From positions 1 through 32,261 of the forward strand of contig CALBMD010000224.1 in the NCBI GenBank assembly GCA_937896265.1: 32,261 nt of DNA. Direction: 5' to 3'. Below the pieces are notes generated by a model, which was given only the letters and a program-made list of their open reading frames with translations, searched no databases and was not told the origin of the DNA. The translations under genes were made by a program, and so were the position numbers. Source of the stretch: an uncultured Pseudomonadota bacterium. Its GTDB lineage: Bacteria > Bdellovibrionota_B > Oligoflexia > Oligoflexales > Bog-1112. Of the stretch, positions 1-32,261 are shown piece after piece (the first letter of the stretch is position 1; each line of letters opens with the position of its first letter).

Positions 1-1323
1 ATTGAAGAAGCTAATCTCTTGGGTAAGACCGCCGCTAACCTAGTTCGAGAAAAAAGAAACCTCGAAGGGAAAATTTTCGACATCAGCGAAAAGATTAAAG
101 CAGCAGCAAAAGGACATGATAAAATTTTAGACTTTGATTTCCTTTCTTTTGTGGAAAAATTAGCCTCAATAGCAATACCAACAAGGTTTTTAAACAAGAC
201 TAGAAAAGAGCGTCTCGTTTACAGATCTTCCCTGCCAAGCCATAGTAGCCACCTAGCTGCAAAAGTTGCTAACGGCGGTTCTAAAGTACATACTCACAGC
301 GAGACTTTTTCAGATACCCCAGGGCAAAGTATTGGGTACCTAGGGGGTGCGCAAAAGCCCTCCCAATTCCTGATTCTTAATCCTGAAGCTAAACCTGAAT
401 CTAACCCTCTCTCTCTACCAACAAACACTTCCCTCAAGATCAATCAAGAGTTTGAGAGTGAGAGAGATCTAGACAGATTGGTTTTTGAGGGAATATTTTC
501 CAGATTCGCGGCGCTGCCGCATACCTGCAAGGTGAACGATTGCTCAAAATCAAACTTCTTGCGTGAATTTTATCGTAGGCAAAACCAAGGGAAAACCAGC
601 TTAGAGCTGCTTTTAACCACGCTTGCGTTCTGGGAAAATGATTATTACAGCCAGCAAACAAGCGATGGCCAAGCGCATTCTTTGGGCCGATTGTTCGTCG
701 ATTTGGCGGGTATTGTAGCTGCAAAGAAACGAATTATTTTGAAAAATCTGGATAAAAATCCTAACAAAATTGCGGCAATTCATGAGTTTTGCGAAGTGCG
801 ATGTTTTGATGTTTTTGAATTTTCTAGCTGGCTGTGGCAGGAAAAAGCACCACAGCGTGAAGATATCCAGAAATTTCTTGATGAGAGAGCTTGCAAGCAA
901 GATTCAGCCAATGACAATTCTTGGGAAGCTTACCTGCGCAACGAGCAATCCCAAGTAATTCCAATACCAGAGCAGAAAATTGCAGGTAGCGGACAAAAAG
1001 ATCAGGAAAGCATTGAGGAAGAAAGCGCATATGAAAGCATTGAAGAGGATCAGGAAGACCCATTGCAATTAGGCGCAATCCGTTTAGCGCCATCCTTGCC
1101 AAGATGTGATGAACTAAAAACGAAAGAAGAGCTGCGAGCAGAGATTCACAACGATAAAAGCATTAGGGCCATCCTAATGAAAATACAGCTAATCTGCGTC
1201 AAACGCAGCATTGAGAGCAAGGATGATGGTTGGATCAGCCGTTACAAGAATGAAATCGAGCCTGGAATTAAAAACTACCAAGATGCTATGACGGCTTATG
1301 CGGATCTTACTAGCGGGAGTTGA
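1..1323 (+). CDS. hypothetical protein, 5' end probably off-window
   Basis: Frame 1 is open from base 1, with no stop before the listed TTG at 19, to TGA at 1321-1323. The C-terminal third is acidic (EEESAYESIEEDQED). No family recognised by eye. Confidence 0.55.
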   Translation: MEEANLLGKTAANLVREKRNLEGKIFDISEKIKAAAKGHDKILDFDFLSFVEKLASIAIPTRFLNKTRKERLVYRSSLPSHSSHLAAKVANGGSKVHTHSETFSDTPGQSIGYLGGAQKPSQFLILNPEAKPESNPLSLPTNTSLKINQEFESERDLDRLVFEGIFSRFAALPHTCKVNDCSKSNFLREFYRRQNQGKTSLELLLTTLAFWENDYYSQQTSDGQAHSLGRLFVDLAGIVAAKKRIILKNLDKNPNKIAAIHEFCEVRCFDVFEFSSWLWQEKAPQREDIQKFLDERACKQDSANDNSWEAYLRNEQSQVIPIPEQKIAGSGQKDQESIEEESAYESIEEDQEDPLQLGAIRLAPSLPRCDELKTKEELRAEIHNDKSIRAILMKIQLICVKRSIESKDDGWISRYKNEIEPGIKNYQDAMTAYADLTSGS

Positions 1324-1438
1324 GATGTTTTCTAGCTTGAGAAATCGTCGACGTCCTAGGCTCAACAGGAAAGCTATGTAGGGTTTGGTACGGGTTAGAA
1401 AGAAGGTCCCCGCAGGAAATATAATACAGAATACGAAT

Positions 1439-1470
1439 GACATACAAACAGCCAAACACGTTTGTATGTC
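1439..1470 (+). terminator. perfect 11-bp stem / 10-nt loop hairpin, possible terminator or RNA element
   Basis: GACATACAAAC (1439-1449), loop AGCCAAACAC, GTTTGTATGTC (1460-1470). Only a weak T-run (ACTTTAATT) follows. Confidence 0.3.
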
Positions 1471-1588
1471 ACTTTAATTAGCTAAATTAGCTAGTTAAAG
1501 GTGAAAATACAAATATACAAATACATTCCTCCCCTGGGAAAAGAAGAAAGAAAAGAAGAAGAGAAAATATTTTAAGAGGTTTTCGGTC

Positions 1589-1975
1589 ATGGTGGTTTGT
1601 ATTTTGTATGTGATGATTGCAGCCTCGTTAAGGCTCCGAGGTAGCTCCGCAAACAACGCGGCCTCTCAGAAGTTTTCAAACGCCTTTCAGGCTCTCAGAA
1701 GCGGTTTGTTAACACTTTGGTGTCGTTTTGGATCAAAATCGATCACAGACGATTATAGGCGTTTTAATACCATTGTTCACCGAAAAGAGAAGACCGCCTC
1801 AAAAACTTTGTGGGCTGCTGTTGTCTTTGCCGCAACTGTTGCTCTTGCTATGCGTCTTACCATAATCAAAAATCGCCTCAAAAGCTGGTTTTCTACTGTT
1901 GTCGCAAAAGGTCAGAGAAATGTGCACTTGCTCTGTCACGATAACCCCACCCTAAGGAGAGCATCATACAATTAG
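1589..1975 (+). CDS. doubtful hypothetical ORF
   Basis: It is the only ORF of 60 aa or more in this stretch, but the composition is odd (rich in R, C, W) and there are no recognisable motifs. It may be non-coding. Confidence 0.2.
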   Translation: MVVCILYVMIAASLRLRGSSANNAASQKFSNAFQALRSGLLTLWCRFGSKSITDDYRRFNTIVHRKEKTASKTLWAAVVFAATVALAMRLTIIKNRLKSWFSTVVAKGQRNVHLLCHDNPTLRRASYN

Positions 1976-1986
1976 CTCAGGAATTA

Positions 1987-2208
1987 TTGCCAGGCCAAGC
2001 ACTTGCCAACAAAGTCCTTGATGAGGCGAGAAAGCGAAGCATTGTTGTAAACAAGCTCTTGATAGCGGCTAGCATCCAGCAAACGCTGTTCTATGATTGG
2101 GTGCGAGGGTACGGTGCACCCAACGAAATTAACATCGTCAGGCTTAACGCTTGCCTAGCCTTTCTCGCGGAGGAGCCTGCCCATGCGCTTGCAAACGACA
2201 AGGATTAG
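1987..2208 (+). CDS. small hypothetical protein, possibly HTH DNA-binding
   Basis: TTG start 4 nt after AGGAA (1979-1983). The 73-aa product has helix-rich, regulator-like sequence. It is the first of a chain of overlapping + strand ORFs leading into the SLT gene. Confidence 0.35.
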   Translation: MPGQALANKVLDEARKRSIVVNKLLIAASIQQTLFYDWVRGYGAPNEINIVRLNACLAFLAEEPAHALANDKD

Positions 2209-2443
2209 GGGTGGCTTATGGCGTAACCCAGAGCAAGAGCACCAAAGGATTGTGGAGAGGCTACGCAGTGCTCGCAGCCAAATCCAAAAGCCTCCGCCAG
2301 TGGCAAAGCCTCCTAGAACAATCAAATTTACAAGACCTATAGTCACTGTTGACCAAGAGTATCTAAGGGTTTTAGGACGCCTTAGACAGTCTGACCGAGA
2401 TGCAATCAAAAAGAAAAAACCAGGGAGACCCTATGAGCTTTGA
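2183..2443 (+). CDS. hypothetical basic protein
   Basis: 86-aa ORF that overlaps both neighbours in operon-like fashion. Rich in Pro, Lys and Arg. A competing frame at 2151-2342 cannot be excluded. Confidence 0.3.
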   Translation: MRLQTTRIRGGLWRNPEQEHQRIVERLRSARSQIQKPPPVAKPPRTIKFTRPIVTVDQEYLRVLGRLRQSDRDAIKKKKPGRPYEL

Positions 2444-2489
2444 GGATGTCCAGTTTTCAGGAAGCCATCTAAGAAAAGGAGGTGGAATT

Positions 2490-2966
2490 ATGCAAGTTGG
2501 ACAAAGAGATAAGCTCCTAACCCTGGTGAGAGATACCGCAAAAAAGTTTGAAATTGAACCGGAAATGTTAGATGCCATTGTAACCAAGGAGTCGACCTAT
2601 GACCCTTATGCAATGCAATATGAGCCTGATTTCATCTGGCTATCAACCCCGAGTAAGTTCGCAGCCGCCAATAAAACATCAGTCGAATTCGAAACAGAAC
2701 TGCAAAAGACTTCCTTAGGCCTATGCCAAATCATGGGCGGCACTGCCCGCGACGCAGGTCATAAAGGCCACCTAGTTCGGTTATTCGAGCCAAAGGCAAA
2801 TCTTACTATTTCGTGTCAGCATATAAGAAGGCTGCAAAAGCGCTATTCAAAACTAGAGGATATTATTTCTGCTTATAATGCTGGTTCTGTAAGGATGAAG
2901 GATAACCAATACAGCAATCAGGATTATGTCGATAGCGTTTTGGATTGGATGAGGAAGCTAAGATAA
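2490..2966 (+). CDS. lytic transglycosylase (SLT domain), candidate endolysin
   Basis: ATG at 2490 follows a strong AAGGAGG (2477-2483). The motif AIVTKESTYDPYAMQ carries the catalytic-Glu context, followed by GLCQIMG and AYNAG, as is typical of SLT/lysozyme-like proteins. The ORF is also open from 2400, and ATG 2433 is an alternative start. Confidence 0.8.
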   Translation: MQVGQRDKLLTLVRDTAKKFEIEPEMLDAIVTKESTYDPYAMQYEPDFIWLSTPSKFAAANKTSVEFETELQKTSLGLCQIMGGTARDAGHKGHLVRLFEPKANLTISCQHIRRLQKRYSKLEDIISAYNAGSVRMKDNQYSNQDYVDSVLDWMRKLR

Positions 2967-3029
2967 AGATCTTTATCTAATCCTAATTGGTCTGGGGACA
3001 GATCATTACTCAATTTAAAAGAGGAAAAT

Positions 3030-3335
3030 ATGGGAACTAATTATTATATAAGGCAATATTGTCAGCACTGCGGGGAGACATGGGTGACCAAGGAGCGCCA
3101 TGTTGGAAAGCAGTCTGCTGGCTGGAAATTTAATTTTAACTCCACGGAGATTAAGTCTTACGAAGACTGGGTGAAGTTCCTCCGCGAACATGAAAAATAT
3201 TTTACTAACGAGTACGGTGAGAAGATAAATGTAGATGACTTCTTGAAAGGAATAGAGGTCAATAAGAACGGGCATCATGAACTAGGAGAAGAGGTGCAGA
3301 ATGGTTGCCGGTTTCATGACGGTGATTTTTCATAG
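3030..3335 (+). CDS. hypothetical phage protein with N-terminal CxxC
   Basis: ATG follows AAGAGGAAAA. The 101-aa product has protein-like composition (MGTNYYIRQYCQHCG...HVGKQSAGWKF). Confidence 0.6.
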   Translation: MGTNYYIRQYCQHCGETWVTKERHVGKQSAGWKFNFNSTEIKSYEDWVKFLREHEKYFTNEYGEKINVDDFLKGIEVNKNGHHELGEEVQNGCRFHDGDFS

Positions 3336-3408
3336 TTCGGTCAAGGCGATCCTAGAGGCAGATAGGGCGTGGTGCAACTTAGTTTCAATAGAGGCAGGGG
3401 CGAGGAGC

Positions 3409-3681
3409 TTACTTTGCCACCTGCTTCTTTGAAAGGTTGTGTTGATCAATCAGAGTCATTACAGCCATCTTGATTACCGCTTGTCTGCCTGTTCCTAGCT
3501 CAGCAACAAATTCGTCGAGCCGATTAAGCATAGGAATGGGGAAGTCAACGTTGACCCTTTGAGATTCAATAAGCGGGGCTTTTCGGACCGGCTTGCTAAA
3601 GTATTGAGATACTTCCTCGCCACGGTCTGCCATGTTAGCTATTGTTTCGGCGTCGATGCTTTTTTTAGATGTTGTCTTCAT
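3409..3681 (-). CDS. brnA: BrnA-type antitoxin (RHH/CopG-like C-terminus)
   Basis: It overlaps the 3' end of the upstream DUF497 toxin gene by 17 nt. The C-terminal VNVDFPIPMLNRLDEFVAELGTGRQAVIKMAV is a ribbon-helix-helix pattern. Confidence 0.8.
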   Translation of the reverse strand: MKTTSKKSIDAETIANMADRGEEVSQYFSKPVRKAPLIESQRVNVDFPIPMLNRLDEFVAELGTGRQAVIKMAVMTLIDQHNLSKKQVAK

Positions 3682-3943
3682 ATTGTTTCCTTTCTCCAGG
3701 TGTTGATCTCCATAATGTCACAAAATGATAATATTCCCCGGTGTCATCTTCTCTTGGTTCATACACCAAAGAAATGAGTTTGTTACCAACGTAACCAATT
3801 ACCAAAAACTGATCCGGATCATCATTCTTCTGAAACTCCACATAATAATGTGAAAAGATAACCTGAGCTTCTTCAAAAGAGCACTTTCTATGCTTGTTCG
3901 CTTTTAGTTCTTTGCTCTTCTTTGGGTCCCAGGTAAAGCGCAC
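3665..3943 (-). CDS. brnT: BrnT-type (DUF497) ribonuclease toxin
   Basis: GTG start follows AGAGGGAA. The N-terminal FTWDPKKSKELKANKHRKCSFEEAQVIF matches the BrnT signature F-WD..K...N..KH.vsFeEA. It ends with a WRSTPGERKQY-like motif. Confidence 0.85.
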   Translation of the reverse strand: MRFTWDPKKSKELKANKHRKCSFEEAQVIFSHYYVEFQKNDDPDQFLVIGYVGNKLISLVYEPREDDTGEYYHFVTLWRSTPGERKQYEDNI

Positions 3944-3963
3944 GGTTATTCCCTCTATATAGC

Positions 3964-3980
3964 GGTATAACCATTATACC
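3964..3980. promoter_or_regulatory. dyad operator candidate upstream of brnTA
   Basis: GGTATAA-CCA-TTATACC is a perfect 7-bp inverted repeat lying 21 bp upstream of the brnT start. Confidence 0.4.
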
Positions 3981-4138
3981 TTTTTGCTTCGGTTAATTGC
4001 AAAAGAAAGTTGAGTGGAAATGTATAATCTATTGTTATCTAATATATTTTTTGATTTTATCCCTACTTCGCTTACATCCCCGCCATAAATGGCGAGGTTT
4101 TGCGCGAAGGGGATAAAGGTAGCCTAAAAACCCTTCCG

Positions 4139-4174
4139 ATTTAGAATTAGCTTTCTGACCCCACACTATATAGA
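4139..4174 (+). promoter_or_regulatory. conserved 36-bp promoter-like element, copy A
   Basis: ATTTAGAATTA-N12-CACACTATATAGA lies 23 bp upstream of the methyltransferase ATG. The same architecture occurs at 5572 and 9078. Confidence 0.5.
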
Positions 4175-4196: not shown

Positions 4197-4961
4197 ATGA
4201 ACTACAAAGTTAAATTTGGCGATATCTGGAAGCTGGGAAATCATCGACTGCTATGTGGTGATAGCACCGAACCAGCAATGATGGAACGCTTCCTGATCGG
4301 TCAGAATCCCGCCCTATGCGTGACTGATCCGCCTTATGGAGTTAACTACAAAGCCAGAGTAAGCAAACCGGCACTGTATGACCTGAAAGTCAAAAATGAC
4401 CATGTGGTGAGCTGGGGCGATGCGTTTAGGCTGTCTAAAGCTCCTGTGCTCTATGCTTGGTTTGGCTTTAAGGGCTTCGATATCGTTAGCCGTGCTATCA
4501 ATGATGCGGGCTATGACGTCAGGCAAATGCTCATTTGGGTCAAAAATCACTTTTCTCTACAGCGCTTCTTCTACCATCTTCAGCACGAACAATGCCTTTT
4601 GGCAGTCAGGCACGACGTCAAACAGGCCACTACCTGGACCGGAGACCGCAAGCAAAGATCTGTGTGGTTTGTTAATGGAGTGCGCCCAGGTCAGCGTATC
4701 CACCCGGCAGAGAAGCCAACAGGGGTCTATACCATCCCGATCATTAACCACACAAGAGAAGGCGATATCGTTGTCGACCTCTTTGCTGGTTCTGGCGTCT
4801 TATTTGAGGCCTGCGAGGCATTGCAGAGAGTCGGCCTAGGTATAGAGCTTTGTCCTGATGTTTGTTTTCGAATTATTGGGAGAATGGAACGTCTAGGGCT
4901 TGAGGTCTCAAAAGAGATTAACATTCTTGACGAATTAGAAACGGTTTTAGCCTGTTCATAG
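4197..4961 (+). CDS. DNA methyltransferase (N6/N4 type, DPPY ... FAGSG order), no partner restriction enzyme seen
   Basis: RBS GGGAGGGAAG. Motifs are GNHRLLCGDS, VTDPPYGV (motif IV) and the C-terminal VVDLFAGSGV (motif I), as in the N6_N4_Mtase family common in phages. Confidence 0.9.
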   Translation: MNYKVKFGDIWKLGNHRLLCGDSTEPAMMERFLIGQNPALCVTDPPYGVNYKARVSKPALYDLKVKNDHVVSWGDAFRLSKAPVLYAWFGFKGFDIVSRAINDAGYDVRQMLIWVKNHFSLQRFFYHLQHEQCLLAVRHDVKQATTWTGDRKQRSVWFVNGVRPGQRIHPAEKPTGVYTIPIINHTREGDIVVDLFAGSGVLFEACEALQRVGLGIELCPDVCFRIIGRMERLGLEVSKEINILDELETVLACS

Positions 4962-4974: not shown

Positions 4975-5553
4975 ATGGGAATCGAATTCGACCTACGTGA
5001 CGTGCAAAAGTTCATTGAGTCCATCGACAAAGAAAACCAAAAGGCTATGCGATCTGCTGCTAATCGCAGCATTAACGCTATGCACAAAGAAGCGTGGAAG
5101 ATTGCGAAGGAGCGCTACAGCAAGCTGCCAAAGACCGAAGATCGAGATAAGAACGAGGCGTTTAACAGCCGTGTGACCAAGAGCGTTGATAGATCTGACC
5201 CAACGAGCTACAAGACGAAGTTAAAAGCAACTAAGGAGCCTTACAACGCGATCCATTCGGTTGTTGGCTCACGTTATCCAAGAGATCAGAAAGGCATTCC
5301 GGTTAAGCGAAGAGCACCAATCTATGTGAGGATAGCAGGAGAGAAGACGAAAGTTGGGAAAGCACAGTTTATCGGTAAGCCGAAAGCTACCGCTAGCAAA
5401 GACGTGACTCTGTTGCTTGCAAGAACTGAGGAAGGGCAGAAGAAAGAAACCTACAGCTCGCTCTATGATGTACTTTCCTTTCCAGAGAATGAAAAAAGAA
5501 TTGAAGCGGTCTTTAATAAGGTTGTGGATGAAGTTTACGGAAAAATGAAATAG
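4975..5553 (+). CDS. phage protein, possibly lambda gpZ-like tail completion protein
   Basis: The 192-aa basic protein has an N-terminal AMRSAANRSINAMHKEA segment and a basic central region that recall lambda gpZ / HK97 gp10-like proteins. The similarity was judged by eye only. Confidence 0.45.
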   Translation: MGIEFDLRDVQKFIESIDKENQKAMRSAANRSINAMHKEAWKIAKERYSKLPKTEDRDKNEAFNSRVTKSVDRSDPTSYKTKLKATKEPYNAIHSVVGSRYPRDQKGIPVKRRAPIYVRIAGEKTKVGKAQFIGKPKATASKDVTLLLARTEEGQKKETYSSLYDVLSFPENEKRIEAVFNKVVDEVYGKMK

Positions 5554-5571: not shown

Positions 5572-5607
5572 ATTTAGAATTATACTTTTATTTCTACACT
5601 ATATAAA
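5572..5607 (+). promoter_or_regulatory. conserved 36-bp promoter-like element, copy B
   Basis: ATTTAGAATTA-N12-TACACTATATAAA lies at the start of the 310-bp gap preceding terS. Confidence 0.5.
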
Positions 5608-5623: not shown

Positions 5624-5697
5624 AAACTCAATGAAAGCAAGATAAAATAATTATGGAATTTTTGAAATTGAAATCATTAAAACTCAATGAAATCAAG
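5624..5697 (+). repeat. two 18-bp direct repeats (candidate terminase-binding sites)
   Basis: AAACTCAATGAAAGCAAG (5624-5641) and AAACTCAATGAAATCAAG (5680-5697) match at 17 of 18 positions with a 56-bp period. Confidence 0.6.
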
Positions 5698-5794
5698 GGA
5701 AATACAGCGATGATCTCATAAAACCATTGTTTTTACTTGAAATTTACGCATAAAACTCTGCGGGTCCTTCCTGCCACGGTAGAATATCGGGTGC

Positions 5795-5806
5795 TCGGCG
5801 CGCCGA
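5795..5806. other. GC-rich perfect palindrome, candidate cosN core
   Basis: TCGGCGCGCCGA sits in a local GC-rich island within AT-rich DNA, 65 bp upstream of terS. Confidence 0.3.
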
Positions 5807-5870
5807 CTCTGCGAATATTTGTGGGGCTCTTAGCTCCACCAGTAGTCTATAAAAAAGAAAGGGTGTGAAT

Positions 5871-6353
5871 ATGTTGCAAACATTGAGTGAAACACAAAAG
5901 GCCTCTCTAGCACAACTGGAAAAACTGACTCAAATATCATTCAAGACTCTAGTGAAAAGATTAGCAGATGTCGAGCCAATTGAAGTTACTGCTCGTGAAA
6001 AATATTATCCACTCGGTGAAGCTCTTCGTGTCGTCTACAAACCTTCGCTTTTGGATCTCAACAAAGAACGCGCCCGTCTCGCCAAGTACCAAGGCGACAA
6101 GGTTAAGCTCGAAGTGCAAGAGATGAAAGGGATGCTCATCGATTCAGAAAAATGGCTCGCAGACTATTCGCAAAAAATAACTGGTTTCAAGGATAAAATG
6201 CTTGCTCTGCCGCTGAAACTTGCCGGTGAGGTTAGCATCTGTTCCGATGTCGAAGAAAACAGGATGCGCCTTACCTCCGCTGTCTATGAGGCACTAAACG
6301 ATCTAGCTTTTGCTCAAAAGGGTAATTATGAGGCACAAAAAGATAACCGCTAA
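5871..6353 (+). CDS. terminase small subunit (Nu1-like)
   Basis: ATG lies 7 nt after AGAAAGGG. It has an N-terminal HTH-like segment and a LDLNKERARLAKYQGDKVKLEVQEMKG coiled segment typical of small terminases. It sits immediately upstream of, and overlapping, terL. Confidence 0.75.
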   Translation: MLQTLSETQKASLAQLEKLTQISFKTLVKRLADVEPIEVTAREKYYPLGEALRVVYKPSLLDLNKERARLAKYQGDKVKLEVQEMKGMLIDSEKWLADYSQKITGFKDKMLALPLKLAGEVSICSDVEENRMRLTSAVYEALNDLAFAQKGNYEAQKDNR

Positions 6354-8136: not shown

Positions 8137-8293
8137 GCGGCGACAATTGGGATTTTACCCAATCTATTTCATTTGAATCTTCTGGGGGAGCTATGTTTAC
8201 GCCTTCATATTCAGGATTTGAAAGCTTATCTCGAAACTTTTTCAGCGTTTTTTCATCAGGAAAATCTGGTTCTTTTTTTTCTTCTAATTTCAT
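8087..8293 (-). CDS. possible small acidic protein downstream of higA
   Basis: The 68-aa ORF starts 36 nt after the higA stop, and its 3' end overlaps the terL 3' end antisense by 50 nt. No family recognised. Confidence 0.2.
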   Translation of the reverse strand: MKLEEKKEPDFPDEKTLKKFRDKLSNPEYEGVNIAPPEDSNEIDWVKSQLSPPRQPSALRSTDEGHRS

Positions 8294-8328
8294 TTCTCTA
8301 CCTTTGAGCACTGGAGCAGCGAAACGGG

Positions 8329-8664
8329 TTAGCTGGCTCGAATAACTTTGATATCACGATAGAGAGTCAAGCATTGTTCTTTTGATTTGTCCATGGCTTC
8401 TAATAGCCTTGAGGCAGCTCCCGATGGCTGTGACAAACCCTGCTCCCAAGACTGGATTGTTTTTGAACTTACGCCAAGTAATTCAGCAAACAAAGGTTGA
8501 CTTAGCCCGATTGCTTTCCGTATCCGCGCTACATCCTCTGGTGAATAATCTATTGTTGGTTTTATTTCCCATTTTGTAATTTTTACATTTGTTTTTTTTC
8601 CTTTGGAAAAATCTTTGACTTCTTCCAAACTCTGCATAAGCAAATCGAAATTTTTCTTATCCAT
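8329..8664 (-). CDS. higA: HigA-2-like HTH (XRE) antitoxin
   Basis: The C-terminal IRKAIGLSQPLFAELLGVSSKTIQSWEQGLSQPSGAASRLLEAM matches the HigA-2/MqsA-like HTH pattern. It overlaps the upstream toxin gene by 8 nt. Confidence 0.85.
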   Translation of the reverse strand: MDKKNFDLLMQSLEEVKDFSKGKKTNVKITKWEIKPTIDYSPEDVARIRKAIGLSQPLFAELLGVSSKTIQSWEQGLSQPSGAASRLLEAMDKSKEQCLTLYRDIKVIRAS

Positions 8665-23293: not shown

Positions 23294-23439
23294 CGAGCAA
23301 AAACCTCTAAAAGTTCGACTTTACGCACTTTGATTTATGCACTAATATTTGCACTCTTAAAAGTATTGTAAGTCCGTTTGTAAAATTGACAAAGCACTAA
23401 GTGCAAATAGCTATACTTTTTGCACCATCGAAAGCCCAG
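23294..23439. promoter_or_regulatory. candidate res site and divergent promoters
   Basis: The 146-bp tnpR-tnpA gap holds six YGCAC(T) motifs (23324, 23338, 23350, 23394, inverted at 23400, and 23421), including the dyad GCACTAAGTGC. Confidence 0.4.
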
Positions 23440-26400
23440 CATATGAGTTCCGATTCCCGTCGACTGCAAATTTTGACTAACGGAGAAATTGATGATCTCT
23501 ATGCTTTACCAAGTTTTACAGACGAAGATAGGCTTTTATATTTCGATTTAAGTGCAGTGGAGAAAGAGGCTGTTGATGCTACCTATACTATATCAGTGGG
23601 AGCTCACCTGATTCTACAACTAGGATATTTCAAAGCTAAGAGACAAGTTTTTCGGTATAAGCAAGAAAGTGTTCTTGACGATCTACGCTATATCATCGAG
23701 CTTTATTTTCCTGGAACTGATTTGGCAGATCTCAAGATCCCTTCCAAACCAGTTCGTCTTGAGCAAAAAAAAGCAGTCCCTAAAATTTTTGATTATCGAC
23801 TTTGCGATACTAAAATTCAGCTTGAGTTGGAACAGAAGGCACAAAGGCTTGCAATGCTTTCAACTCAGCCAAGCTATATTCTTCGTGAGGCAATGCAATA
23901 TCTTGCACACCAACGTATAGTCGCGCCAAGCTATCGTTTTATGCAGGAGATGATTGGTCGGGTGATGGCCGCTGAACGCAGGAGAATTACCCAATTGCTT
24001 GGGAAGGCTTTGACGACGGCGCATGAAAAACAACTCGATGAACTTTTAAAGGCCGATGAAGGCATGTATCGGATCACCGCATTCAAGCATGAAGCTATGG
24101 ATTTTAGCTATAAAGAACTGAGATCTGAAGTGGAGCGTCGCAAATTCTTTCAACCACTGTACGAGTTTTCCCAGCAATTTCTTGAAACATCAGGAATTTC
24201 AAGTGAAAGTGTCAAATACTACGCGTCTCTGGTCAAATTCTATACTGTCTTTAAGCTACAGCGTATGGCTATATCCACGACACGTCTATATCTTATATGC
24301 TTTGCCTATCATCGCTTTCGTCAGATCAATGATAGTCTGATCGACGCTTTTATCCATTGGGTAGATAAATACGAAAACCAAGCCAAAATAGCTGCAGAAG
24401 CAGCTATGCACAATGCACTTGCGGATGCCTCTGAAAACCTTAAGGCAGCTGGTCAAGTTCTCAATTTATTCGTTGATCTTTCAATACCAAGTGACGCTTC
24501 CTTTACTATGGTAAAGGAAAAAGCATTCTCTATGCTTGATCCGGAACGATTTTCACAGGTATCGGACTATATGCGTAATATTGCTTTTGATAAGGAGGCT
24601 TTCGTTTGGTCTTATTGGACAAAGCTATCACTGACTTTCAAAAGGAATCTACGACAATTATTTACCGACTTGTCCTTTGCTGGCCGTGTGGAAGATGCAC
24701 CGTTATTAGAGGCTGTCACATTCTTGCAAAATATTCTTAGGCAAGGAAAGTCGCTAAGACAGGTTGATCCGTCTACATTCCCGATTGCATTGATTCCAAA
24801 AAATTTGCAGCGGCACCTATTTGTCACGATAGAAGATGAAAAAGACAAGAAGCTGGTCGTTGATCGATACGAGTTCTTAGTTTATCGGTGCCTACGCAAA
24901 GCGCTAGAATCTGGCGATGTATTTGTCGGAGGAAGCACTGAGTATCGGCGTTTTGAAGACGACTTGATTAGCGATATTCGCTGGCAAAACAAGGATTTCA
25001 TTTTGAATGATATTGGTTCACCTGTTTTGCTGACACCAATCCGAGAAACTCTGAATGATTTTCAAATTTCTCTTGAAAAAAAGATAACGGCTGTTAATCA
25101 ACGTATTGCCAATGGACTCAACAAACATATCAAGATCATAGGCTCTGACGATAAACGTCGATGGAAGCTAATCCACCCAAGCACTGAAGAGCCCGTCAGT
25201 CATCAATTTTATGATCAACTGCCTGGAATTTCTCTCCCAGATCTCTTATGGTTTGTCGCAAAAAACACCGGATTTTTTAGCTCCTTCACTCATGTTTTAG
25301 ACCGATATGTCAAGCAAAATGCTGAGCCTCACGAAATTCTTGCCTGTATTGTTGCCATGGGTACCAATATGGGATTATCAAAAATGGCCGAAGTTTCCGG
25401 CCTGACTTCTTCATCGTTGATAACTACGACACGTAATTACGTGAGACTAGAAACACTACACGAAGCTAACAATGCAATTAGCAATGCCATCGCGGCTCTC
25501 CCGCTATTCAAGCTCTTCAATATTCATGACTCAATCCATTCTAGTAGTGATGGCCAGCGAATGGAAACACAAATAAATACAATCAATTCTCGCTATTCAC
25601 CAAAATATTTTGGATTGCATAAAGGCGTCAGCAGCTATACGTTAATAGCCAATCATGTGCCTATTAACGCTAAGATTATTGGGACTCACGAACACGAGAG
25701 TCACTATGTTTTCGATTTACTTTACAATAATACCTCGGATATCAAACCAGAACGCCATTCTACGGATACGCATGGGACCAACCAAGTAAATTTCTGGATT
25801 TTGCACACGTTTGGCTACGATTTTGCTCCGAGATATCGTGATCTGCACAAGAAAATGAGCTCTCTTGTTGGTTTTAAGCACCCAAGCCAATATGACTCCC
25901 TAATTAAGCCTTCTCGAAAGGCAAACCTAGAATTGATTGAAAGCGAATGGCCGAATATTCAACGAATCATGGCATCTTTGGCACAAAAAGATGTGACACA
26001 GGCCACGATAGTTCGAAAGCTAAGCAGCTATAGCAGACAAAACAAAACGATGAAAGCCCTTTGGGAGCTAGAAAATATATGTCGCACCCTATATATTCTT
26101 GACTTTATCGACGACGTAGAACTACGACAGAACGTGCAAAAGGCGCTCAACCGAGGTGAAGCTTATCACCGATTCCGGCGCGCAATTGCTTATGTAAATG
26201 GTGGAAAATTTCACGTTAAAACCTAAGCTGAGCAACAGATATGGAACGAATGCTCCCGACTAATTGCCAACTCAGTGATCTATTACAACACCTTGCTACT
26301 TTCTCGAGTACATAAGCAAAAAGAAGACGCAGGCAACCACGAAGCAATGTCTGTCATTCAAGGAATGTCACCTGTCGCTTGGCAACACGTCAATCTTTTT

Positions 26401-26487
26401 GGGTCATTCGAATTCAATCCAAATGTACCTAAAGTGGATATCGAAGCTTTAGTTGCCATTTTCGCGGACAAGATCTTTTTAGGATAG
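23440..26487 (+). pseudogene. tnpA: Tn3-family transposase interrupted by one in-frame TAA
   Basis: The N-terminus MSSDSRRLQILTNGEIDDLYALPSFTDEDRLLYF is typical. An in-frame TAA at 26224-26226 is followed in the same frame by AEQQIWNECSRLIANSVIYYNT...SPVAWQHVNLFGSFEF, the conserved Tn3 TnpA C-terminus. Confidence 0.85.
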
Positions 26488-26516
26488 ATTTATGAAGAGT
26501 GCCGTTTGGACGGTGG

Positions 26517-26556
26517 GATGAATTGACCTTTTTGGCGCGTTGGGCATAAATAGCCA
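26517..26556. repeat. right terminal inverted repeat
   Basis: Exact reverse complement of 22616-22655. Confidence 0.9.
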
Positions 26557-26808
26557 ATTTCAGACAAATCTTTTTAACGCCAGATCGGATAAATAGCTTG
26601 GACAAGAAGGGTTTTAGCCAAGATGACGGTTTTTGTACGTAATCCTTACCGCTCCCCAAACCCTCATCTTTGCTGTTTCTAGAATTTAGATGCGTATGCC
26701 CTGCCTGCTAACCCCCCCCCACTTCGGATTTTACGCTGTCGCAACGTGTTGATTTTATTTGATATAATTTTTAGCAAAAACTGGGGTTTTTTGGTCATGT
26801 TTTCCCCC

Positions 26809-26862
26809 TTGACAAGTACGCTAAATAACGTACTATTTAAAAAGTACTTTAATTAACGTACT
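26809..26862 (+). promoter_or_regulatory. promoter and GTAC-dyad operator of the RelE/XRE toxin-antitoxin operon
   Basis: TTGACA (26809-26814), 16 nt, then TACTAT. The dyad AGTACG-N8-CGTACT (26815-26834) is followed by AGTACT and a second AACGTACT. An extended -10 TGATATAAT at 26760-26768 is a second candidate promoter. Confidence 0.5.
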
Positions 26863-26875
26863 AGGGGGCCGATGC

Positions 26876-27157
26876 ATGCTTTATGTGGTGAAGGTTTCGA
26901 AACAAGCAGAAAAGGAGCTTAGAAAACTTCCACGCCACATAATAGAAGCGCTTATGTTATGGGTCCATGATGTAGAAACTTCAGGGCTCGAAATTGTCCG
27001 AAAGATTCCGGGCTACCATGATGAGCCTCTAAAAGGGGATCGAAAAGGCCAAAGATCAATAAAACTCAATCGTTCCTATAGAGCGATATATGTTGTTAAT
27101 AGTGATGGCACTATTGATTTTGTTGAGGTTAAGGAAGTTAACAAGCACAAGTATTAA
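26876..27157 (+). CDS. RelE/ParE-superfamily toxin
   Basis: The 93-aa product reads KQAEKELRKLP...GYHDEPLKGDRKGQRSIKLNRSYRAIYVV...VNKHKY, the RelE-type signature. The RBS is AGGGGG. Confidence 0.85.
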   Translation: MLYVVKVSKQAEKELRKLPRHIIEALMLWVHDVETSGLEIVRKIPGYHDEPLKGDRKGQRSIKLNRSYRAIYVVNSDGTIDFVEVKEVNKHKY

Positions 27158-27171: not shown

Positions 27172-27486
27172 ATGAAAAAATCTGACGCTATGCAGCTGCT
27201 TGAAAATATAGCTGGTGAAGAGTTTACATTTGCAACGATGATGCGCGTTCTTCGCCAAAGAAAGGAAATGACCCAAGAACAGTTCGGTAAACTTTTAGGT
27301 GTCCAAAAAGCCTATATTTGCGATATTGAACGCGGTAGACGTAATATCACTATCGACCAGGCAATCAAGTTCGCAGCTAAATTGGAAGATGTGGTATCCA
27401 TGAAACAGTTCATAGAAATGGCTGTCAGCTATCAACTCAAGAAGAATGGGCTGGACTATGATGCTGTTTTGGTAGCGAACGGGTAG
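27172..27486 (+). CDS. XRE-family HTH antitoxin
   Basis: MTQEQFGKLLGVQKAYICDIERGRRNITIDQAIKFAAKL is a canonical XRE HTH. It lies 14 nt downstream of the toxin gene. Confidence 0.8.
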   Translation: MKKSDAMQLLENIAGEEFTFATMMRVLRQRKEMTQEQFGKLLGVQKAYICDIERGRRNITIDQAIKFAAKLEDVVSMKQFIEMAVSYQLKKNGLDYDAVLVANG

Positions 27487-27700: not shown

Positions 27701-27973
27701 CTACCCTAGGGTTTTCATTGCAATTTTCTCTATTATCCTGGATCGAGAAAGTCTATGTTTACCAGCCGCCTGTTCAATAAGTTCAATTACATTTGGATCT
27801 AATGTAAAGGTCATTGCTACACGTCGCGGCCTTTTTTCGGCCTCTTGAAACCAATCAGAAGTATCCAGTTCATCTTTACTTATAGGCGAGCTACTCACTT
27901 GGGCATCTGGTGGATCAACAAAATCGTCAAACACCTCAACTCTTGTCGGTACAGGTTTCTTTTGCTTTGACAT
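27701..27973 (-). CDS. ribbon-helix-helix centromere-binding protein (ParG-like)
   Basis: The 90-aa protein lies directly downstream of parA (parA stop 27974, its own start 27973). It has an acidic, disordered N-terminus and a C-terminal RHH (VAMTFTLDPNVIELIEQAAGKHRLSRSRIIEKIA). Confidence 0.7.
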   Translation of the reverse strand: MSKQKKPVPTRVEVFDDFVDPPDAQVSSSPISKDELDTSDWFQEAEKRPRRVAMTFTLDPNVIELIEQAAGKHRLSRSRIIEKIAMKTLG

Positions 27974-28747
27974 TTATATATTCTCCATAATGTGAGTAGC
28001 AAATCTCATGTAGGTCTTAGCAACGATCGAAGATGGGAAAGCTTCTCCAAGCGCTTGGTTCTGTCGCTGAGCTTCGAGAACTTTCACAGAGTGTGGAATA
28101 ATCCAATCTCTTAAAAACAATTCTTCCTTCTTCATATTATTTAAGGCTTCTTTAACAACCTTGGCATTTGCCTTTTCATACCCTGTAAGCAAGACACCTA
28201 TCTCTTTCAGAGAGTTGTTCGCCCTTTCTTTAACTCGATCAGCGAATATACGGGCATTGCTAACACCTATTTCCGAATACTCCGACAGGTCCGTCACAAG
28301 CAGGTAGTGCGTCGAAGCAATCAATGCGTTGCGGGTTTCTATACCCAGTACAGGGGGAGTGTCTATCACGATAAAATCAAAGAAACCACCCGTCCTATCC
28401 ACTGCTCTTTTAAGAATGCGGTCCCTATCTATTGAGGCCGATAGTTCCTGTTCTAAGGTTGTTAACCGTCGATCCGCTGGCACCAATATTAAATTACCCC
28501 AATTTCCGCTTGGCTTGACCACGACTTTTTTAACAGGTATGTCGCCTTCGCTCTTAAAAAGATCGTAAGAGCTACTCTTGTGGTCTGCCCGGCCGGTTAG
28601 GTGGATTGTTGAACTAGCCTGCTTGTCTATATCAATCAGAAGAACCTTGTAGTTCTTCGCAAGATAGTAAGCCAACTGAATAACACTCGTAGTTTTACCA
28701 CAGCCACCCTTTTCATTTAGTACAGTTATCACCCGCGTATTTGGCAT
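27974..28747 (-). CDS. parA: ParA partition ATPase (small, type Ib-like)
   Basis: It has the deviant Walker A NEKGGCGKTT and Walker B FIVIDTPP. At 257 aa it lacks an N-terminal HTH. Confidence 0.92.
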   Translation of the reverse strand: MPNTRVITVLNEKGGCGKTTSVIQLAYYLAKNYKVLLIDIDKQASSTIHLTGRADHKSSSYDLFKSEGDIPVKKVVVKPSGNWGNLILVPADRRLTTLEQELSASIDRDRILKRAVDRTGGFFDFIVIDTPPVLGIETRNALIASTHYLLVTDLSEYSEIGVSNARIFADRVKERANNSLKEIGVLLTGYEKANAKVVKEALNNMKKEELFLRDWIIPHSVKVLEAQRQNQALGEAFPSSIVAKTYMRFATHIMENI

Positions 28748-28968: not shown

Positions 28969-30327
28969 ATGCGTACTGGACCTGTAACGTACCAAGACGT
29001 ACGAGAGATATGCGATAAGATTAAGTGTACAAAAAAAAATATTACAACACGCAGGATACGAGAAGAACTACAACGCGGATCTTTAAGCACTATCAGCAAG
29101 CATTTAAAAGCTTGGCAAGCTACACGTACAAATGTGTACGAAATCAAAAAGATACACCGTGACACAGACGTTTTGAATGGCGATGTACGATCGTACACAA
29201 CCACCAAGAAACAACCACCTAGTCATACCAACATGACCGGCACCAATGTACACGATATAAAAGAAGCCAATCTTAGCGTACACACTAAACAACACCCTGT
29301 ACATCCACAAACTGGCGACCAAAAGGCCATGGCTGACATGGTACAAGAGGTTGGAAACCTGGCGGCGACATTTACGGAAGCTACAAAGCAATCTGAAGCC
29401 GTCCAAGCTAATCTTGCCGAAAAATCACAGGCTGCTGCCATTTCAGAAGTCAAAGCTGCGAACCAAAAGGCCCTTACCGACATGGCGGAGGAGATTAGAA
29501 ATCTAGTGGCAGCATTTACGGAAGCTACAGAGCAATCTGACGCTGACCAAGCTAATCAGGGCAAAAAGATACAGGCCGCTATATCCGAAGTTAAATCGGA
29601 TGTACAAGAATCTATATGTACACTAGCGAACGAGGTTGCAAAGCTAGCAACACTCAAGGCTCCTGATGAACAAACCGCCAGTAAGAAGGTAGATATCGCT
29701 CCCGAACACTTTGCTTGGCAGGATTTCTCGCTTCTTATCACAAGCCCCTCAGCCTTTTTTCTCTCCGTCGCCGTCTTAGCCATAACTGGCCTTCTAGTGT
29801 TTTTCCAAACCTCCGCCTATATTACGGGCGGCCTTGGCAGTGCCTCACTACCCATCGCCGCCGTTTGCGAGCTTAGCTTAGTTGCTCTTACTATCTTTTT
29901 TTCAGCCAAAATGCAGAAAAAAACCGCCGCCTTCTTGTTTCTTGCTGTATTCGGCTATGTCTTAGCCACCATGAGCTATGATCTTGCCTCAACATCGATC
30001 CAAGAGGTCACGACAGCGACTACAAATAATAAGCAGACTGCCTCAATTGAAACCCAGATAGAAACCTATATCGAAGCGTTTCAAACCGCGACAAAAAAGC
30101 AGGAAAATGGCAATATGGCTAAATGGTCCTCGAAAATAGATGATGCCAAAAAAGAACTTACCAACTTGCAGACAACGGCAAAAAGCAGCGATACGGCACG
30201 ACTAATTGAAGCAAAATGCTCGGGGATGATCGTACTTAGAGCGTTGCTCATGTTGCTCAACGCTTTCTTTGTACATGCACTCATCGGGATTTTTAAGAGA
30301 AACAACGAACAAGTCATTGCAATATAG
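28969..30327 (+). CDS. KfrA-N-like DNA-binding protein with repeat-containing helical middle region and C-terminal transmembrane segments
   Basis: The N-terminus VTYQDVREICDKI...TTRRIREELQRGSLSTISKHLKAW fits the KfrA_N pattern. The middle holds two ~47-aa repeats. The C-terminus has four hydrophobic helices (e.g. AFFLSVAVLAITGLLVFF, LPIAAVCELSLVALTIFF, AAFLFLAVFGYVLATM, VLRALLMLLNAFFVHALIGIF). Confidence 0.7.
   Translation: MRTGPVTYQDVREICDKIKCTKKNITTRRIREELQRGSLSTISKHLKAWQATRTNVYEIKKIHRDTDVLNGDVRSYTTTKKQPPSHTNMTGTNVHDIKEANLSVHTKQHPVHPQTGDQKAMADMVQEVGNLAATFTEATKQSEAVQANLAEKSQAAAISEVKAANQKALTDMAEEIRNLVAAFTEATEQSDADQANQGKKIQAAISEVKSDVQESICTLANEVAKLATLKAPDEQTASKKVDIAPEHFAWQDFSLLITSPSAFFLSVAVLAITGLLVFFQTSAYITGGLGSASLPIAAVCELSLVALTIFFSAKMQKKTAAFLFLAVFGYVLATMSYDLASTSIQEVTTATTNNKQTASIETQIETYIEAFQTATKKQENGNMAKWSSKIDDAKKELTNLQTTAKSSDTARLIEAKCSGMIVLRALLMLLNAFFVHALIGIFKRNNEQVIAI
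29325..29600 (+). repeat. tandem duplication of ~141-144 bp (two copies) inside the KfrA-like ORF
   Basis: CATTTACGGAAGCTACA recurs at 29369 and 29513. The protein repeats are KAMADMVQEVGNLAATFTEATKQSEAVQANL... and KALTDMAEEIRNLVAAFTEATEQSDADQANQ... Confidence 0.7.
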
Positions 30328-30358
30328 TCTAAACTACTCAACTTGGGGGGGGATTTTG

Positions 30359-32110
30359 ATGACGACTTTAGGTGCAGTAAACCTTGCAGAGAAGATTTTA
30401 ACGCGTACCAAAGAGAAAGAAATTAGGTACCATGAAGCCAACCCTACAAAACCACCAATTGAATACAAACCTTTTCCCACTGTCGAAACAGCAGAACTGC
30501 CTGAAGGCAACCATCAATTACAAGCAATAGAGCCATGTGCCGCCTGTACAGATAAGTTTTTGATGGCAGAAGGACAGGAAGGCACCATCATTGCAACGAC
30601 CTGTACTGTCTGCGTACCATTTAACAGCAACTCATGGGCGGTTGATGCAAAAATTCATGCAATAGGAGCCGCAGAAGTACCTAATAGGTATTTCAAAGCT
30701 CTGACTAGAGAAAACATTCGCCCTGAAATCTTAGAGGTAGCTGAGTCACTAATTTCTCAACAAAACAAAAACCCATTCCTTTTTTTCCACGGCGGTATCG
30801 GAACTGGTAAAACCCATTCTGCAGCACATATAATGCTAAACTATCTACAAAAGACGAATCTCTCTTGTTTTTATATCCCAGTATATGAATATCTAGAATT
30901 GAATCGTAACCGTAGCGCGTACGGTTTTGAGCACGGAAAACTAAGATCAAATACACAACATGCTTTTAAGCATGTAAGAGATCGATCAAAAAATGTTGAT
31001 TTACTGATACTCGATGAACTTGGGCAAGAAGTTCTTACCACAGATCAGCAAAAATCAGTGTTTGATTTGTTAGACTCAAGATATAGGTCAAACAAGCCAA
31101 CAATCTTGATCTCTAATCATTGTGAAAACAAGGCGATTAGTTTAGATGGTAAGATTCTATCTGAGCTCATTGGATCAAGGATTGCATCGAGAATTAAGTC
31201 CGCAAAGCTTGTGTACTTTAGCGGCGAAGATTATAGAGTAACAAAAGAACATAGCGAAGTTATTACTGAAGAAGAGGCTGAGAAATTTAAAATGAATGAG
31301 AAGATACTTACGCATAGCGATGACGAACACCAGATTATGACTTGGGTCACCAGAATATCTGCTTTTAAAACGGTTTCCACCCAAGAAAGGAAAGATCTAA
31401 CTTATATCTATAATGGAGAGGAGAGAGATTCTGATCGACGCGAGCCTTCTATTTATGAAGATATTTGGGTAAAGGGTGACAGCTTAATAATTCACGGCCC
31501 AATTTGTGACCAAGAAGATGAAAAGCTCTACTGTTGGTTGGTCAAGGAGCTAACAAATCAACATACTAAAGGACACCTAGGGCTAACGATAAATCTTAGT
31601 TTTCGCTATATTCTTCAAGGTCTTGGCTTATCAAGCAGCAGCGGCGAAAACATCAAAAGAGTACGTAGGCAACTTGATCGATTAAACAGGATGTCTCTTT
31701 CTTTTTCCAATGCAAAAGGACACAAATGGTCTGGCCCCTTAATAACAGATCTTGAGCAATTTGGTCAAAGCTCAGACCAAAAATTGAAAATAAGCTTTAG
31801 TCGATGCATGATCCCCTTTTACAGACTTAATGCCTACACAACGTTTGATAGAATAACAGCTAGAAAACTAAAAGGCGATAGTGCAACATTGTACTTTTTT
31901 TATATATCTCACTCAGAATCTAGACCTATTACATTAAATCACTTCAAAGGACTTTTAGCCCTTAGCGACGAAATAGATCATAAAGAAACGATGAGACGTG
32001 CCAAAAAAATGTTAGATAATTTGATAAAAGCAAGCGTACTAGACCCAAAAGAATCTTTTATTAAAGGTGGTAAAATCTTTACTCAATTACTATGCCCCAT
32101 GCCTCAATAA
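30359..32110 (+). CDS. DnaC/IstB-like AAA+ ATPase fused to a RepA/TrfA-like initiator domain
   Basis: Motifs are CAAC...CTVC near the N-terminus, Walker A FFHGGIGTGKTH, Walker B LLILDELGQE and ILISNH. The C-terminal ~270 aa (SSSGENIKRVRRQLDRLNRMSLSF...ATLYFFYISH...) resemble plasmid RepA/TrfA initiators. ATG 30359 lies 6 nt after a G8 tract, and the ORF is open from 30269. Confidence 0.7.
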   Translation: MTTLGAVNLAEKILTRTKEKEIRYHEANPTKPPIEYKPFPTVETAELPEGNHQLQAIEPCAACTDKFLMAEGQEGTIIATTCTVCVPFNSNSWAVDAKIHAIGAAEVPNRYFKALTRENIRPEILEVAESLISQQNKNPFLFFHGGIGTGKTHSAAHIMLNYLQKTNLSCFYIPVYEYLELNRNRSAYGFEHGKLRSNTQHAFKHVRDRSKNVDLLILDELGQEVLTTDQQKSVFDLLDSRYRSNKPTILISNHCENKAISLDGKILSELIGSRIASRIKSAKLVYFSGEDYRVTKEHSEVITEEEAEKFKMNEKILTHSDDEHQIMTWVTRISAFKTVSTQERKDLTYIYNGEERDSDRREPSIYEDIWVKGDSLIIHGPICDQEDEKLYCWLVKELTNQHTKGHLGLTINLSFRYILQGLGLSSSSGENIKRVRRQLDRLNRMSLSFSNAKGHKWSGPLITDLEQFGQSSDQKLKISFSRCMIPFYRLNAYTTFDRITARKLKGDSATLYFFYISHSESRPITLNHFKGLLALSDEIDHKETMRRAKKMLDNLIKASVLDPKESFIKGGKIFTQLLCPMPQ

Positions 32111-32212
32111 ACAGGTTTTGTTTTCCCCTCTCCCAACAGCAACAAAGGTATGACCCGATGACATGGTGAACACTTTTGTCCGACGACATGGTTTACACTC
32201 CCTCCTTGAGGA

Positions 32213-32250
32213 GGGGTCTTATGCCGTGGACCGAAAGGACGAAGATGAAA
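32213..32250 (+). repeat. candidate Tn3-family terminal repeat at the window edge
   Basis: GGGGTCTTATGCCGTGGACCGAAAGGACGAAGATGAAA starts with the canonical GGGG. It shares TTATGCC at the same offset (positions 7-13) with the 22617 repeat. No partner copy is seen in the window. Confidence 0.25.
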
Positions 32251-32261
32251 GAAAGGGTATT

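Follow-up and report, generated by a model that had tools for sequence, protein, structure and literature searches.

The contig CALBMD010000224.1 (assembly GCA_937896265.1, from an uncultured Pseudomonadota bacterium) was analysed over its full length of 32,261 bp, referred to here as the window, and probably represents about 32 kb of a larger temperate, contractile-tailed phage (myovirus) that is kept as a low-copy plasmid, i.e. a phage-plasmid. To this reading, which is drawn from gene content and from comparison with related contigs, a probability of roughly 0.7 is given; we infer both that the element is extrachromosomal and that it can form virions. Genes were assigned by hidden Markov model (HMM) searches of the window open reading frames (ORFs) against Pfam, PHROGs and NCBIfam. 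The window carries a complete late set (lysin, TerS/TerL, gpW, portal, protease-capsid, decoration protein, contractile tail and Mu-type baseplate) beside a plasmid maintenance block (RHH-ParA, a KfrA-like protein, Rep and iteron-like repeats), and this gene content fits the published genomic criteria for phage-plasmids (PMC7969092). In the light of those criteria the phage-plasmid reading is favoured by three things taken together: the conserved linkage of the late genes to a plasmid backbone, assembly breaks that fall at the probable origin, and the lack of an integrase. An earlier, sequence-only reading of this DNA had proposed either a phage-plasmid or a prophage on a larger plasmid, with the late block physically linked to ParA and ribbon-helix-helix (RHH) genes, a KfrA-like gene and a Rep gene. 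Nearly all of its gene calls were borne out by the HMM searches, the ParA, KfrA, Rep and structural assignments are upheld by HMM and fold searches together, and the linkage is also kept in a relative.

The closest relative is a metagenomic contig, JBAMKY010016642.1 (GCA_048222815.1), of 38,832 bp, which was rebuilt whole from three overlapping pieces. It is collinear with the window from a 192-aa gene before TerS through gp48, at 36–74% identity, and continues with cargo genes (patatin, PDDEXK_2), RHH-ParA on the minus strand, and KfrA_N and Rep on the plus strand. Identities between the two elements are 74% for TerL, 71% for the tube, 60–66% for KfrA, 56% for the major capsid protein (MCP), 51% for the sheath and 48% for Rep. 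Backbone and structural genes have diverged to a similar extent in the closest relative, a sign of long co-inheritance and not of a recent fusion. No integrase family is on record among the relative's genes. One end of this contig lies 35 nt after rep, within a CCCGATGA motif, and the other has GATC sites and AT-rich DNA, which suggests a circle broken in an iteron array at the origin. The two elements differ in several modules. The relative has an early region with an HTH_31 repressor-like gene, PDDEXK proteins and a DUF5906 primase-helicase, all of which the window lacks; its lysin is an M15 peptidase, whereas that of the window has an SLT domain; and its patatin and PDDEXK_2 cargo is replaced in the window by a Tn3-family transposon and HigBA-like genes. 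Both carry a toxin-antitoxin cassette between TerL and gpW, although of different type (BrnTA in the relative, RelE/HTH in the window, HTH denoting helix-turn-helix).

A more distant element, QGNH01001896.1 (L005), is a permafrost soil viral contig belonging to described permafrost viral populations (PMC6786970). Its ParA and Rep are 31% and 49% identical to those of the window, with a small gene lacking a family match at the RHH position and a weakly similar 369-aa gene at the KfrA position. After rep it has 22-bp iterons (CAATCACGrGAGGTTTCATCCC), with a scaffold gap in the array, and then AT-rich DNA, beyond which lie a lambda-E-type capsid gene and a gpD-like decoration gene, unlike the head of the window. 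The ParA-Rep-iteron backbone is thus tied to virion genes in three independent elements, with KfrA_N confirmed in two of them. Assembly breaks, or a gap, occur just after rep in the window's Logan contig (L003), in the relative and in L005, as would be expected if a genuine origin with a repetitive iteron array lay there. In another relative, L018, TerL is 52% identical and the morphogenesis order is the same, with no toxin-antitoxin pair between TerL and gpW. Capsid identity to cultured or deposited phages is at most 36%.

Within the window, the partition genes lie on the minus strand. ParA (nt 27974–28747; AAA_31 1e-36, CbiA; phrog_164 5e-44) has no N-terminal HTH, and the small adjoining gene (nt 27701–27973) encodes an RHH protein with a weak match, under the cut-off (RHH_1, 0.0028, 18 bits). 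A ParA with a small RHH gene is the type Ib partition layout, and the same arrangement is seen in L004 and L005. The KfrA_N DNA-binding protein (PF11740, 3e-10) is encoded on the plus strand at nt 28969–30327. This gene contains an internal 144-nt tandem duplication (nt 29309–29580, 76% identity), and the C-terminal region of its product is rich in hydrophobic segments, unusual for KfrA-like proteins, and 60% identical in the relative.

The rep gene (nt 30359–32110, plus strand; PF01695/PF00308; phrog_50 5e-28) encodes a protein with a four-cysteine N-terminus, a DnaC/DnaI-like AAA+ domain and a C-terminal WH1-WH2 region. Full-length alignments to the window Rep were obtained for ten family members, at 40–51% identity. 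Invariant among them are C60, C63, C82 and C84, a Walker A GxGKT (G145–T152), Walker B D219/E220, a sensor ISNH with N253, and R274/R278. The AAA+ domain is nearest to DnaC, IstB and DnaI (PDB DnaC 6qel, 1e-7; DnaI 4m4w aligned from residue 21). For the C-terminal 284 residues, Rep3_N was matched by 5 of 9 family members (best 1.8e-6) and RPA by 8 of 9. An AlphaFold (AF2) model built from the family alignment had a pLDDT of 63 overall and 70–88 over most of residues 80–280. When this model was searched with Foldseek, the first 27 PDB matches were all replication initiators (probability 0.90–1.00), and most of the best were iteron initiators; they were led by domains 2–3 of RctB (6e-7) and included RepE54, a Rep-iteron-DUE complex, TrfA and a WH1 domain.

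A profile search of 1.84 billion cluster representatives returned 46 proteins at E <= 1e-30, about 30 of them covering both halves of Rep; the winged-helix half was also found alone or behind other N-termini. Among PLSDB plasmids and deposited phages there was no full-length match, the similarity being confined to the AAA+ part, with alignments that covered at most 44% of the protein. In the literature, nothing on a DnaC-Rep fusion came up, but the search covered one paper collection, so that such a fusion may still have been published. Downstream of rep, 45 nt after its end, are two iteron-like direct repeats, CCGAyGACATGGTkwACACT, on the plus strand (nt 32155–32199, 25 nt apart), where 0.01 occurrences of two such 20-nt copies would be expected by chance. 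The first begins with the CCCGATGA core, which recurs 14 nt after the relative's rep, where that contig ends.

From these features it is tentatively proposed, at somewhat worse than even odds, that Rep is an initiator and helicase loader in one polypeptide, combining a DnaI-like zinc domain, a DnaC-clade AAA+ domain and a RepE/RctB-like WH1-WH2 region in an Orc1/Cdc6-like layout, and that it defines an undescribed replicon class; along with ParA/RHH and a KfrA-like protein anchored in the membrane, this class would make up a portable maintenance backbone that environmental phage-plasmids share while differing in their virion modules. The AAA+ half would bind and load the replicative helicase; alternatively, it may have a DnaA/Orc-like role in origin melting.

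The window is the whole contig but only part of its element. The same DNA, with identical sequence and a G+C content of about 44%, is present in ENA ERZ650265 and in the Logan assemblies of SRR6231146 and SRR6231133. In ERZ650265, NODE_4029 (L011) is 100% identical to window nt 1–4019 and then runs 1154 bp further left, where it carries the start of the first ORF, a 582-nt noncoding stretch and the 3' end of another gene. Since no sequence matching these 1154 bp was found at the right end of the window, the element exceeds 33.4 kb and neither end of the contig is closed. A search for terminal overlap of the window ends was likewise negative, and these two results rule out the window as a closed circle: the contig whose circularity had been in question is complete as deposited but does not close. 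For the same reason, in-frame read-through across a hypothetical end-to-start junction is meaningless, given the L011 extension. No contig extending the right end was obtained. The last 55 nt of L011 (nt 5174–5228) are GC-rich and unrelated to the window from nt 4020 onward; as their length equals the SPAdes k-mer length, they were judged most likely a chimeric k=55 contig end and not a structural variant.

The proposed lack of a tyrosine integrase, Mu A/B transposase, tRNA or att-like feature holds for the window, in which all ORFs of at least 150 aa were assigned without finding a tyrosine integrase or an rve/Mu A/B transposase, and a tRNA search was negative. Rfam searches of the window and L011 gave no family. 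Megablast of the window against plasmids and phages gave no match; TerL peptide scans of genome contig and viral contig collections, and exact 40-mer scans of genome, viral and metagenome collections, found nothing; and exact-protein look-ups were without result for ParA, KfrA and the lysin with its start at 2490.

The late genes begin with TerS (nt 5865–6353, plus strand, as are all genes of the head and tail; phrog_57, 8.5e-14), for which a weak DUF1441 match is on record, followed by a GpA-type TerL with ATPase and nuclease domains (nt 6310–8136; PF05876 7e-55, PF20454 3e-66; 74% identical to P0001). After an interval come a gpW-type head-tail joining protein (nt 9127–9354; NF047331 6e-17, 61 bits against a cut-off of 33; phrog_2545), a portal of the lambda family (nt 9351–10751; PF05136, 1.5e-81), a prohead protease-major capsid fusion (nt 10720–12531; phrog_4523 3e-188; PF25209 (Phage_capsid_4) 7e-44), a head decoration (cement) protein (nt 12500–12844; PF09956 6e-16; phrog_122) and two probable head-tail connector or completion proteins of 106 and 153 aa (nt 12841–13597). 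The last two are 38–39% identical to their positional counterparts in the relative, one of which has a weak Phage_attach match on record. The lambda-type head order proposed in the sequence-only reading therefore stands for GpA, gpW and portal but not for the Nu1-like small terminase, since TerS matched no Nu1 model in the HMM searches, nor for the capsid, which is a protease-MCP fusion and not of the lambda C/E type. The morphogenesis block (nt 5871–22454), described there as uninterrupted on the plus strand, is in fact broken by a RelE-family toxin (nt 8657–8995; PF06296) and an HTH/MqsA-like antitoxin (nt 8329–8664; PF01381/PF15731), inserted on the minus strand between TerL and gpW. The content of this slot varies, with RelE/HTH in the window (nt 8329–8995), BrnT/BrnA in the closest relative (L001, nt 11792–12302) and only two small plus-strand ORFs in L018 (nt 6903–7282).

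The Mu gene order of the tail was confirmed by HMM matches from sheath to fibre. The sheath (nt 13515–14810; PF04984/PF17482), tube (nt 14812–15177; PF10618), chaperone (nt 15170–15433; PF10109) and tape measure (nt 15576–17513; PF10145) are followed, at nt 17489–21450, by DNA_circ_N (Mu gp43), a gp44-like hub, Gp45 spike, GP46 and Baseplate_J (PF07157, PF22255, PF06890, PF07409, PF04865), and by a gp48-like wedge (nt 21440–21934); phrog_184 and phrog_203 were also matched within this baseplate region. The fibre (nt 21894–22454) is short, at 186 aa, and matches only the first 70–90 positions of fibre PHROGs whose profiles span 322–1018 positions; its conserved N-terminus leads into a collagen-like GPQGPAGQKGERGLTGP run and then a short tail. 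Between the fibre and the transposon, about 160 nt downstream, no separate receptor-binding protein was seen. All of the approximately 20 morphogenesis ORFs are intact and collinear with three relatives, the short fibre being the sole doubtful item.

A 3.9 kb Tn3-family transposon (nt 22616–26554) lies between the tail and the par genes, bounded by inverted repeats of 53 nt, 40 nt of them perfect (nt 22609–22661 and 26511–26563). It carries tnpR, a serine resolvase (nt 22646–23293, minus strand; PF00239), and, divergently, tnpA (nt 23401–26487, plus strand; DUF4158 and DDE_Tnp_Tn3, PF01526). The possibility that the resolvase is a Gin/Cin-type fibre invertase was ruled out, as it lies inside the transposon repeats, divergent from tnpA, and is tnpR. 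An in-frame TAA (nt 26224–26226) divides tnpA into 941 aa and an 87-codon in-frame tail. Because 70 codons after the stop still match the end of the DDE domain, and blastn similarity to intact Tn3-family tnpA genes (about 68% identity) continues across it, tnpA is a pseudogene through one nonsense codon, as read from the sequence. The tnpA genes at about 68% nucleotide identity are found on Shewanella, Vibrio and Acinetobacter plasmids. With Tn3-family transposons in general the window copy shares the divergent tnpR/tnpA arrangement, the DUF4158 and DDE_Tnp_Tn3 transposase and terminal repeats of roughly 40 nt; it differs in having no passenger genes and in repeat tips that are not the usual GGGG. 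If the tips are taken as GGCT, the flanks are AATAT and AATTT (a 4/5 match), while other choices of tip give no match. The transposon is best read as an old simple insertion in a variable cargo slot between fibre and par, which is filled by patatin and PDDEXK_2 in the relative.

Between the transposon and par, 27-nt direct repeats resembling an operator (nt 26809–26863) precede a plus-strand ParE/HigB-like toxin (nt 26876–27157; PF05016/PF05015) and HTH antitoxin (nt 27172–27486; PF01381). Three toxin-antitoxin pairs had been taken as a sign of plasmid-style maintenance. All three were found, but two of them are exchangeable inserts in the late region and not part of the backbone.

Several observations weigh against the phage-plasmid reading. 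The missing terminal overlap and the unmatched left flank leave the element unclosed, and the stretch off the contig could hold an integrase. Neither a lysogeny repressor nor early or lytic-replication genes were found among the window genes, the HTH proteins there being antitoxins only. The window ParA is only 28% identical to that of the relative. The window's own Rep does not reach the Rep3_N cut-off (0.0015, 19.3 bits against 22.4), and its model has low TM-scores (0.27–0.35), as expected for two hinged domains, and a moderate overall pLDDT. Two iterons only are visible, with the contig ending 62 nt past the second, and no AT-rich unwinding element can be seen in the window. Tetranucleotide similarity between the plasmid and phage blocks is modest (r = 0.55–0.64). 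The short fibre may hint that the element is defective.

That last point bears on the possibility that the window is a decaying phage-plasmid remnant, still replicating but making no infectious virions, which is unlikely although given more weight than the other alternatives, and which does not exclude the phage-plasmid reading. The 186-aa fibre with its N-terminal family match only, the nonsense codon in tnpA as an accumulated mutation, the lack of visible regulators, and the low coverage and fragmented assemblies would all fit decay. Set against these are the intact, collinear morphogenesis ORFs and the relative's own fibre, which is also short (275 aa), and the missing genes may lie off the contig. 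A chromosomal, possibly defective prophage is a further, rather improbable alternative: its integrase and att sites would lie off the contig, Rep and its iterons would be no more than a phage origin like that of lambda O/P, with ParA as an accessory gene. Several facts would accord with such a prophage: the contig covers only part of the element, the left flank (L011, nt 1–1154) bears no relation to the right end, the window has no repressor or early region, and a DnaC-like loader beside an initiator is a common phage replication module (e.g. BcepMigl, mEpX1). However, the 38.8-kb relative combines a whole phage with par, kfrA and rep, has no integrase family match and ends at the origin rather than in host genes; an iteron-type WH1-WH2 initiator, like KfrA and a ParA/RHH operon, is a hallmark of plasmids; and in L005 this backbone accompanies a head of another type.

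Less probable again is a prophage that sits on a larger plasmid or has become fused to one, for example through a Tn3-mediated cointegrate; the par, kfrA and rep genes would then be the plasmid's own. The transposon does lie exactly between the fibre and the toxin-antitoxin/par block, with no clean 5-bp target duplication, and the plasmid block differs in composition from the phage block, both in tetranucleotides and in G+C (41% against 46%). Yet the relative, which has no transposon, shows the same tail-to-par/kfrA/rep linkage and the same G+C split (42% against 46%), so the linkage is older than the Tn3 insertion; on this ground the transposon was also rejected, as a main explanation, as a cointegrate junction of unrelated phage and plasmid DNA. 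Flanks of AATAT and AATTT, which hold if the tips are GGCT, would be in keeping with an old insertion of the simple kind. The relative measures just 38.8 kb from end to end. Since L005 joins the same backbone to a lambda-E-type head, the phage-plasmid reading is favoured over a prophage on a larger plasmid.

As a phage-plasmid, the element would replicate by binding of Rep, through its RepE-like WH1-WH2 half, to the iterons just downstream of rep, with the zinc-plus-AAA+ half (DnaI/DnaC-like) recruiting and loading host DnaB at a neighbouring AT-rich element; such an element is seen in the relatives but is missing from the window assembly. Segregation of the copies would fall to ParA and the RHH protein, and the toxin-antitoxin cassettes would punish loss of the element or serve as inserts that shield the host from other phages. 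On induction, the late operons would be transcribed and the GpA terminase would cut at a cos site upstream of TerS. The Tn3-family transposon would have entered the variable cargo slot between fibre and par; its transposase now carries a nonsense mutation.

A candidate cos site was found in a noncoding block (nt 5762–5830, about 90 nt upstream of TerS) by alignment with the relative, in which it is kept. It has the form GGGTCCTTCC..CACGG..GATC..CGCC..TTCGAATATT and is conserved although the adjoining TerS proteins are only 43% identical. The assignment as cos, which stays putative, is made because GpA-type terminases are cos terminases. Direct repeats of AAACTCAATGAAAkCAAG, also upstream of TerS (nt 5624–5646 and 5680–5702), are possible binding sites for TerS. 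A promoter-like element, ATTTAGAATTA..TTT-N7-9-ACACTATATA, occurs in three plus-strand copies (nt 4139–4172, 5572–5605 and 9078–9111; chance expectation 0), each just upstream of the start of a plus-strand operon (methyltransferase, TerS and gpW), and two of the three come right after a minus-strand toxin-antitoxin cassette. This 48-nt repeat was sought in the relatives and is absent there. A possible role is that of a late promoter, or of an activator site, from which transcription resumes beyond the inserted cassettes.

At the left end of the window (nt 1–1323, plus strand) are the C-terminal 440 residues of a 484-aa protein whose full ORF is present in L011, its start codon lying 132 nt left of window position 1. 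It has no Pfam, PHROG or NCBIfam match and no homologue in the 38.8-kb relative. Directly upstream of this ORF, the 582-nt noncoding stretch (L011 nt 441–1022, i.e. 132–714 nt left of position 1) has a G+C content of 53–55% relative to a background of about 44%, and its predicted RNA fold is more stable than those of shuffled sequences (z = -3.85, 0/100 as stable), with no Rfam match. Three small plus-strand genes of 128, 73 and 86 aa (nt 1589–2443), without Pfam or PHROG matches, precede the lysin and may be part of a lysis cassette; the 128-aa product is called as a gene in three other assemblies (L011, L012 and L013), and the 73-aa product is 44% identical to that of a small gene ahead of the relative's lysin. 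The SLT-domain lytic transglycosylase (nt 2433–2966, plus strand; PF01464, 4.6e-15), whose product from nt 2433 on is likewise on record in three other assemblies, is the probable endolysin. It is followed by a minus-strand pair (nt 3409–3943) of BrnT toxin (nt 3665–3943; PF04365 1.8e-6, under the curated cut-off) and BrnA antitoxin (nt 3409–3681; NF047399 1.5e-13), and on the plus strand by an orphan N6/N4 DNA methyltransferase (nt 4197–4961; PF01555, 6.3e-16) and the conserved 192-aa protein ahead of TerS (nt 4975–5553), which has no Pfam, PHROG or NCBIfam match.

Cultured bacteria (enterobacteria, Vibrio, Acinetobacter and Bacillus) are the source of most known phage-plasmids, in which the plasmid replicases are the part hardest to recognise. 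The phage-plasmid lifestyle and most of the gene families seen here are already known, while the lineage is new to plasmid and phage databases. Together with its relatives, a metagenomic contig and a permafrost viral contig, the element would carry the phage-plasmid class into uncultured environmental bacteria, a single maintenance backbone being paired with two kinds of head. The one feature that might come as a surprise to a specialist is the fused loader-initiator Rep. If it works as proposed, it would offer a compact model of an iteron initiator that recruits helicase without a separate loader, and a useful marker for finding more phage-plasmids in metagenomes.

Among known systems, the element in its gene content resembles P1, a contractile-tailed temperate phage that persists as a plasmid of low copy number by means of an iteron-binding Rep, ParA-type partition and a toxin-antitoxin addiction module, with no need for an integrase (PMC7969092). 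P1 differs in its size of about 94 kb, headful (pac) packaging, type Ia ParA/ParB, a separate lytic replicon and a RepA without AAA+. Tail and baseplate order is shared with Mu-like phages, but MuA/MuB transposition is absent from the window, in which only the tail is Mu-like. CP017837.1 (L016; phage MWH-Nonnen-W8red 2, host Silvanigrella aquatica) has the same GpA TerL, lambda-family portal, protease-MCP and Mu-type sheath, tube, gp43, gp45 and gp47 at 27–44% identity, and a ParA-like gene at 35% over 150 aa. Unlike the window, it has no Rep or KfrA homologue, and its serine recombinase is larger, at about 438 aa; the deposited record bears no annotation and is marked as a partial genome. Its ParA-like and recombinase genes lie at nt 14890–15834 and 21958–23274, and it was deposited as a separate sequence. 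CP017837.1, extrachromosomal in appearance, may itself be a phage-plasmid.

As to Rep, its C-terminal ~200 residues are predicted to form tandem winged helices like those of RepE (F), pi, TrfA and RctB, and direct repeats adjoin rep, although sequence similarity to these initiators is marginal. They lack an AAA+ domain and recruit DnaB via DnaA/DnaC or by direct contact. The AAA+ motifs of Rep are instead shared with DnaC, DnaI and IstB, and its four N-terminal cysteines recall the zinc-binding helicase-interaction domain of DnaI. Relative to lambda O/P, Rep would unite the origin binding of O and the helicase loading of P in one polypeptide.

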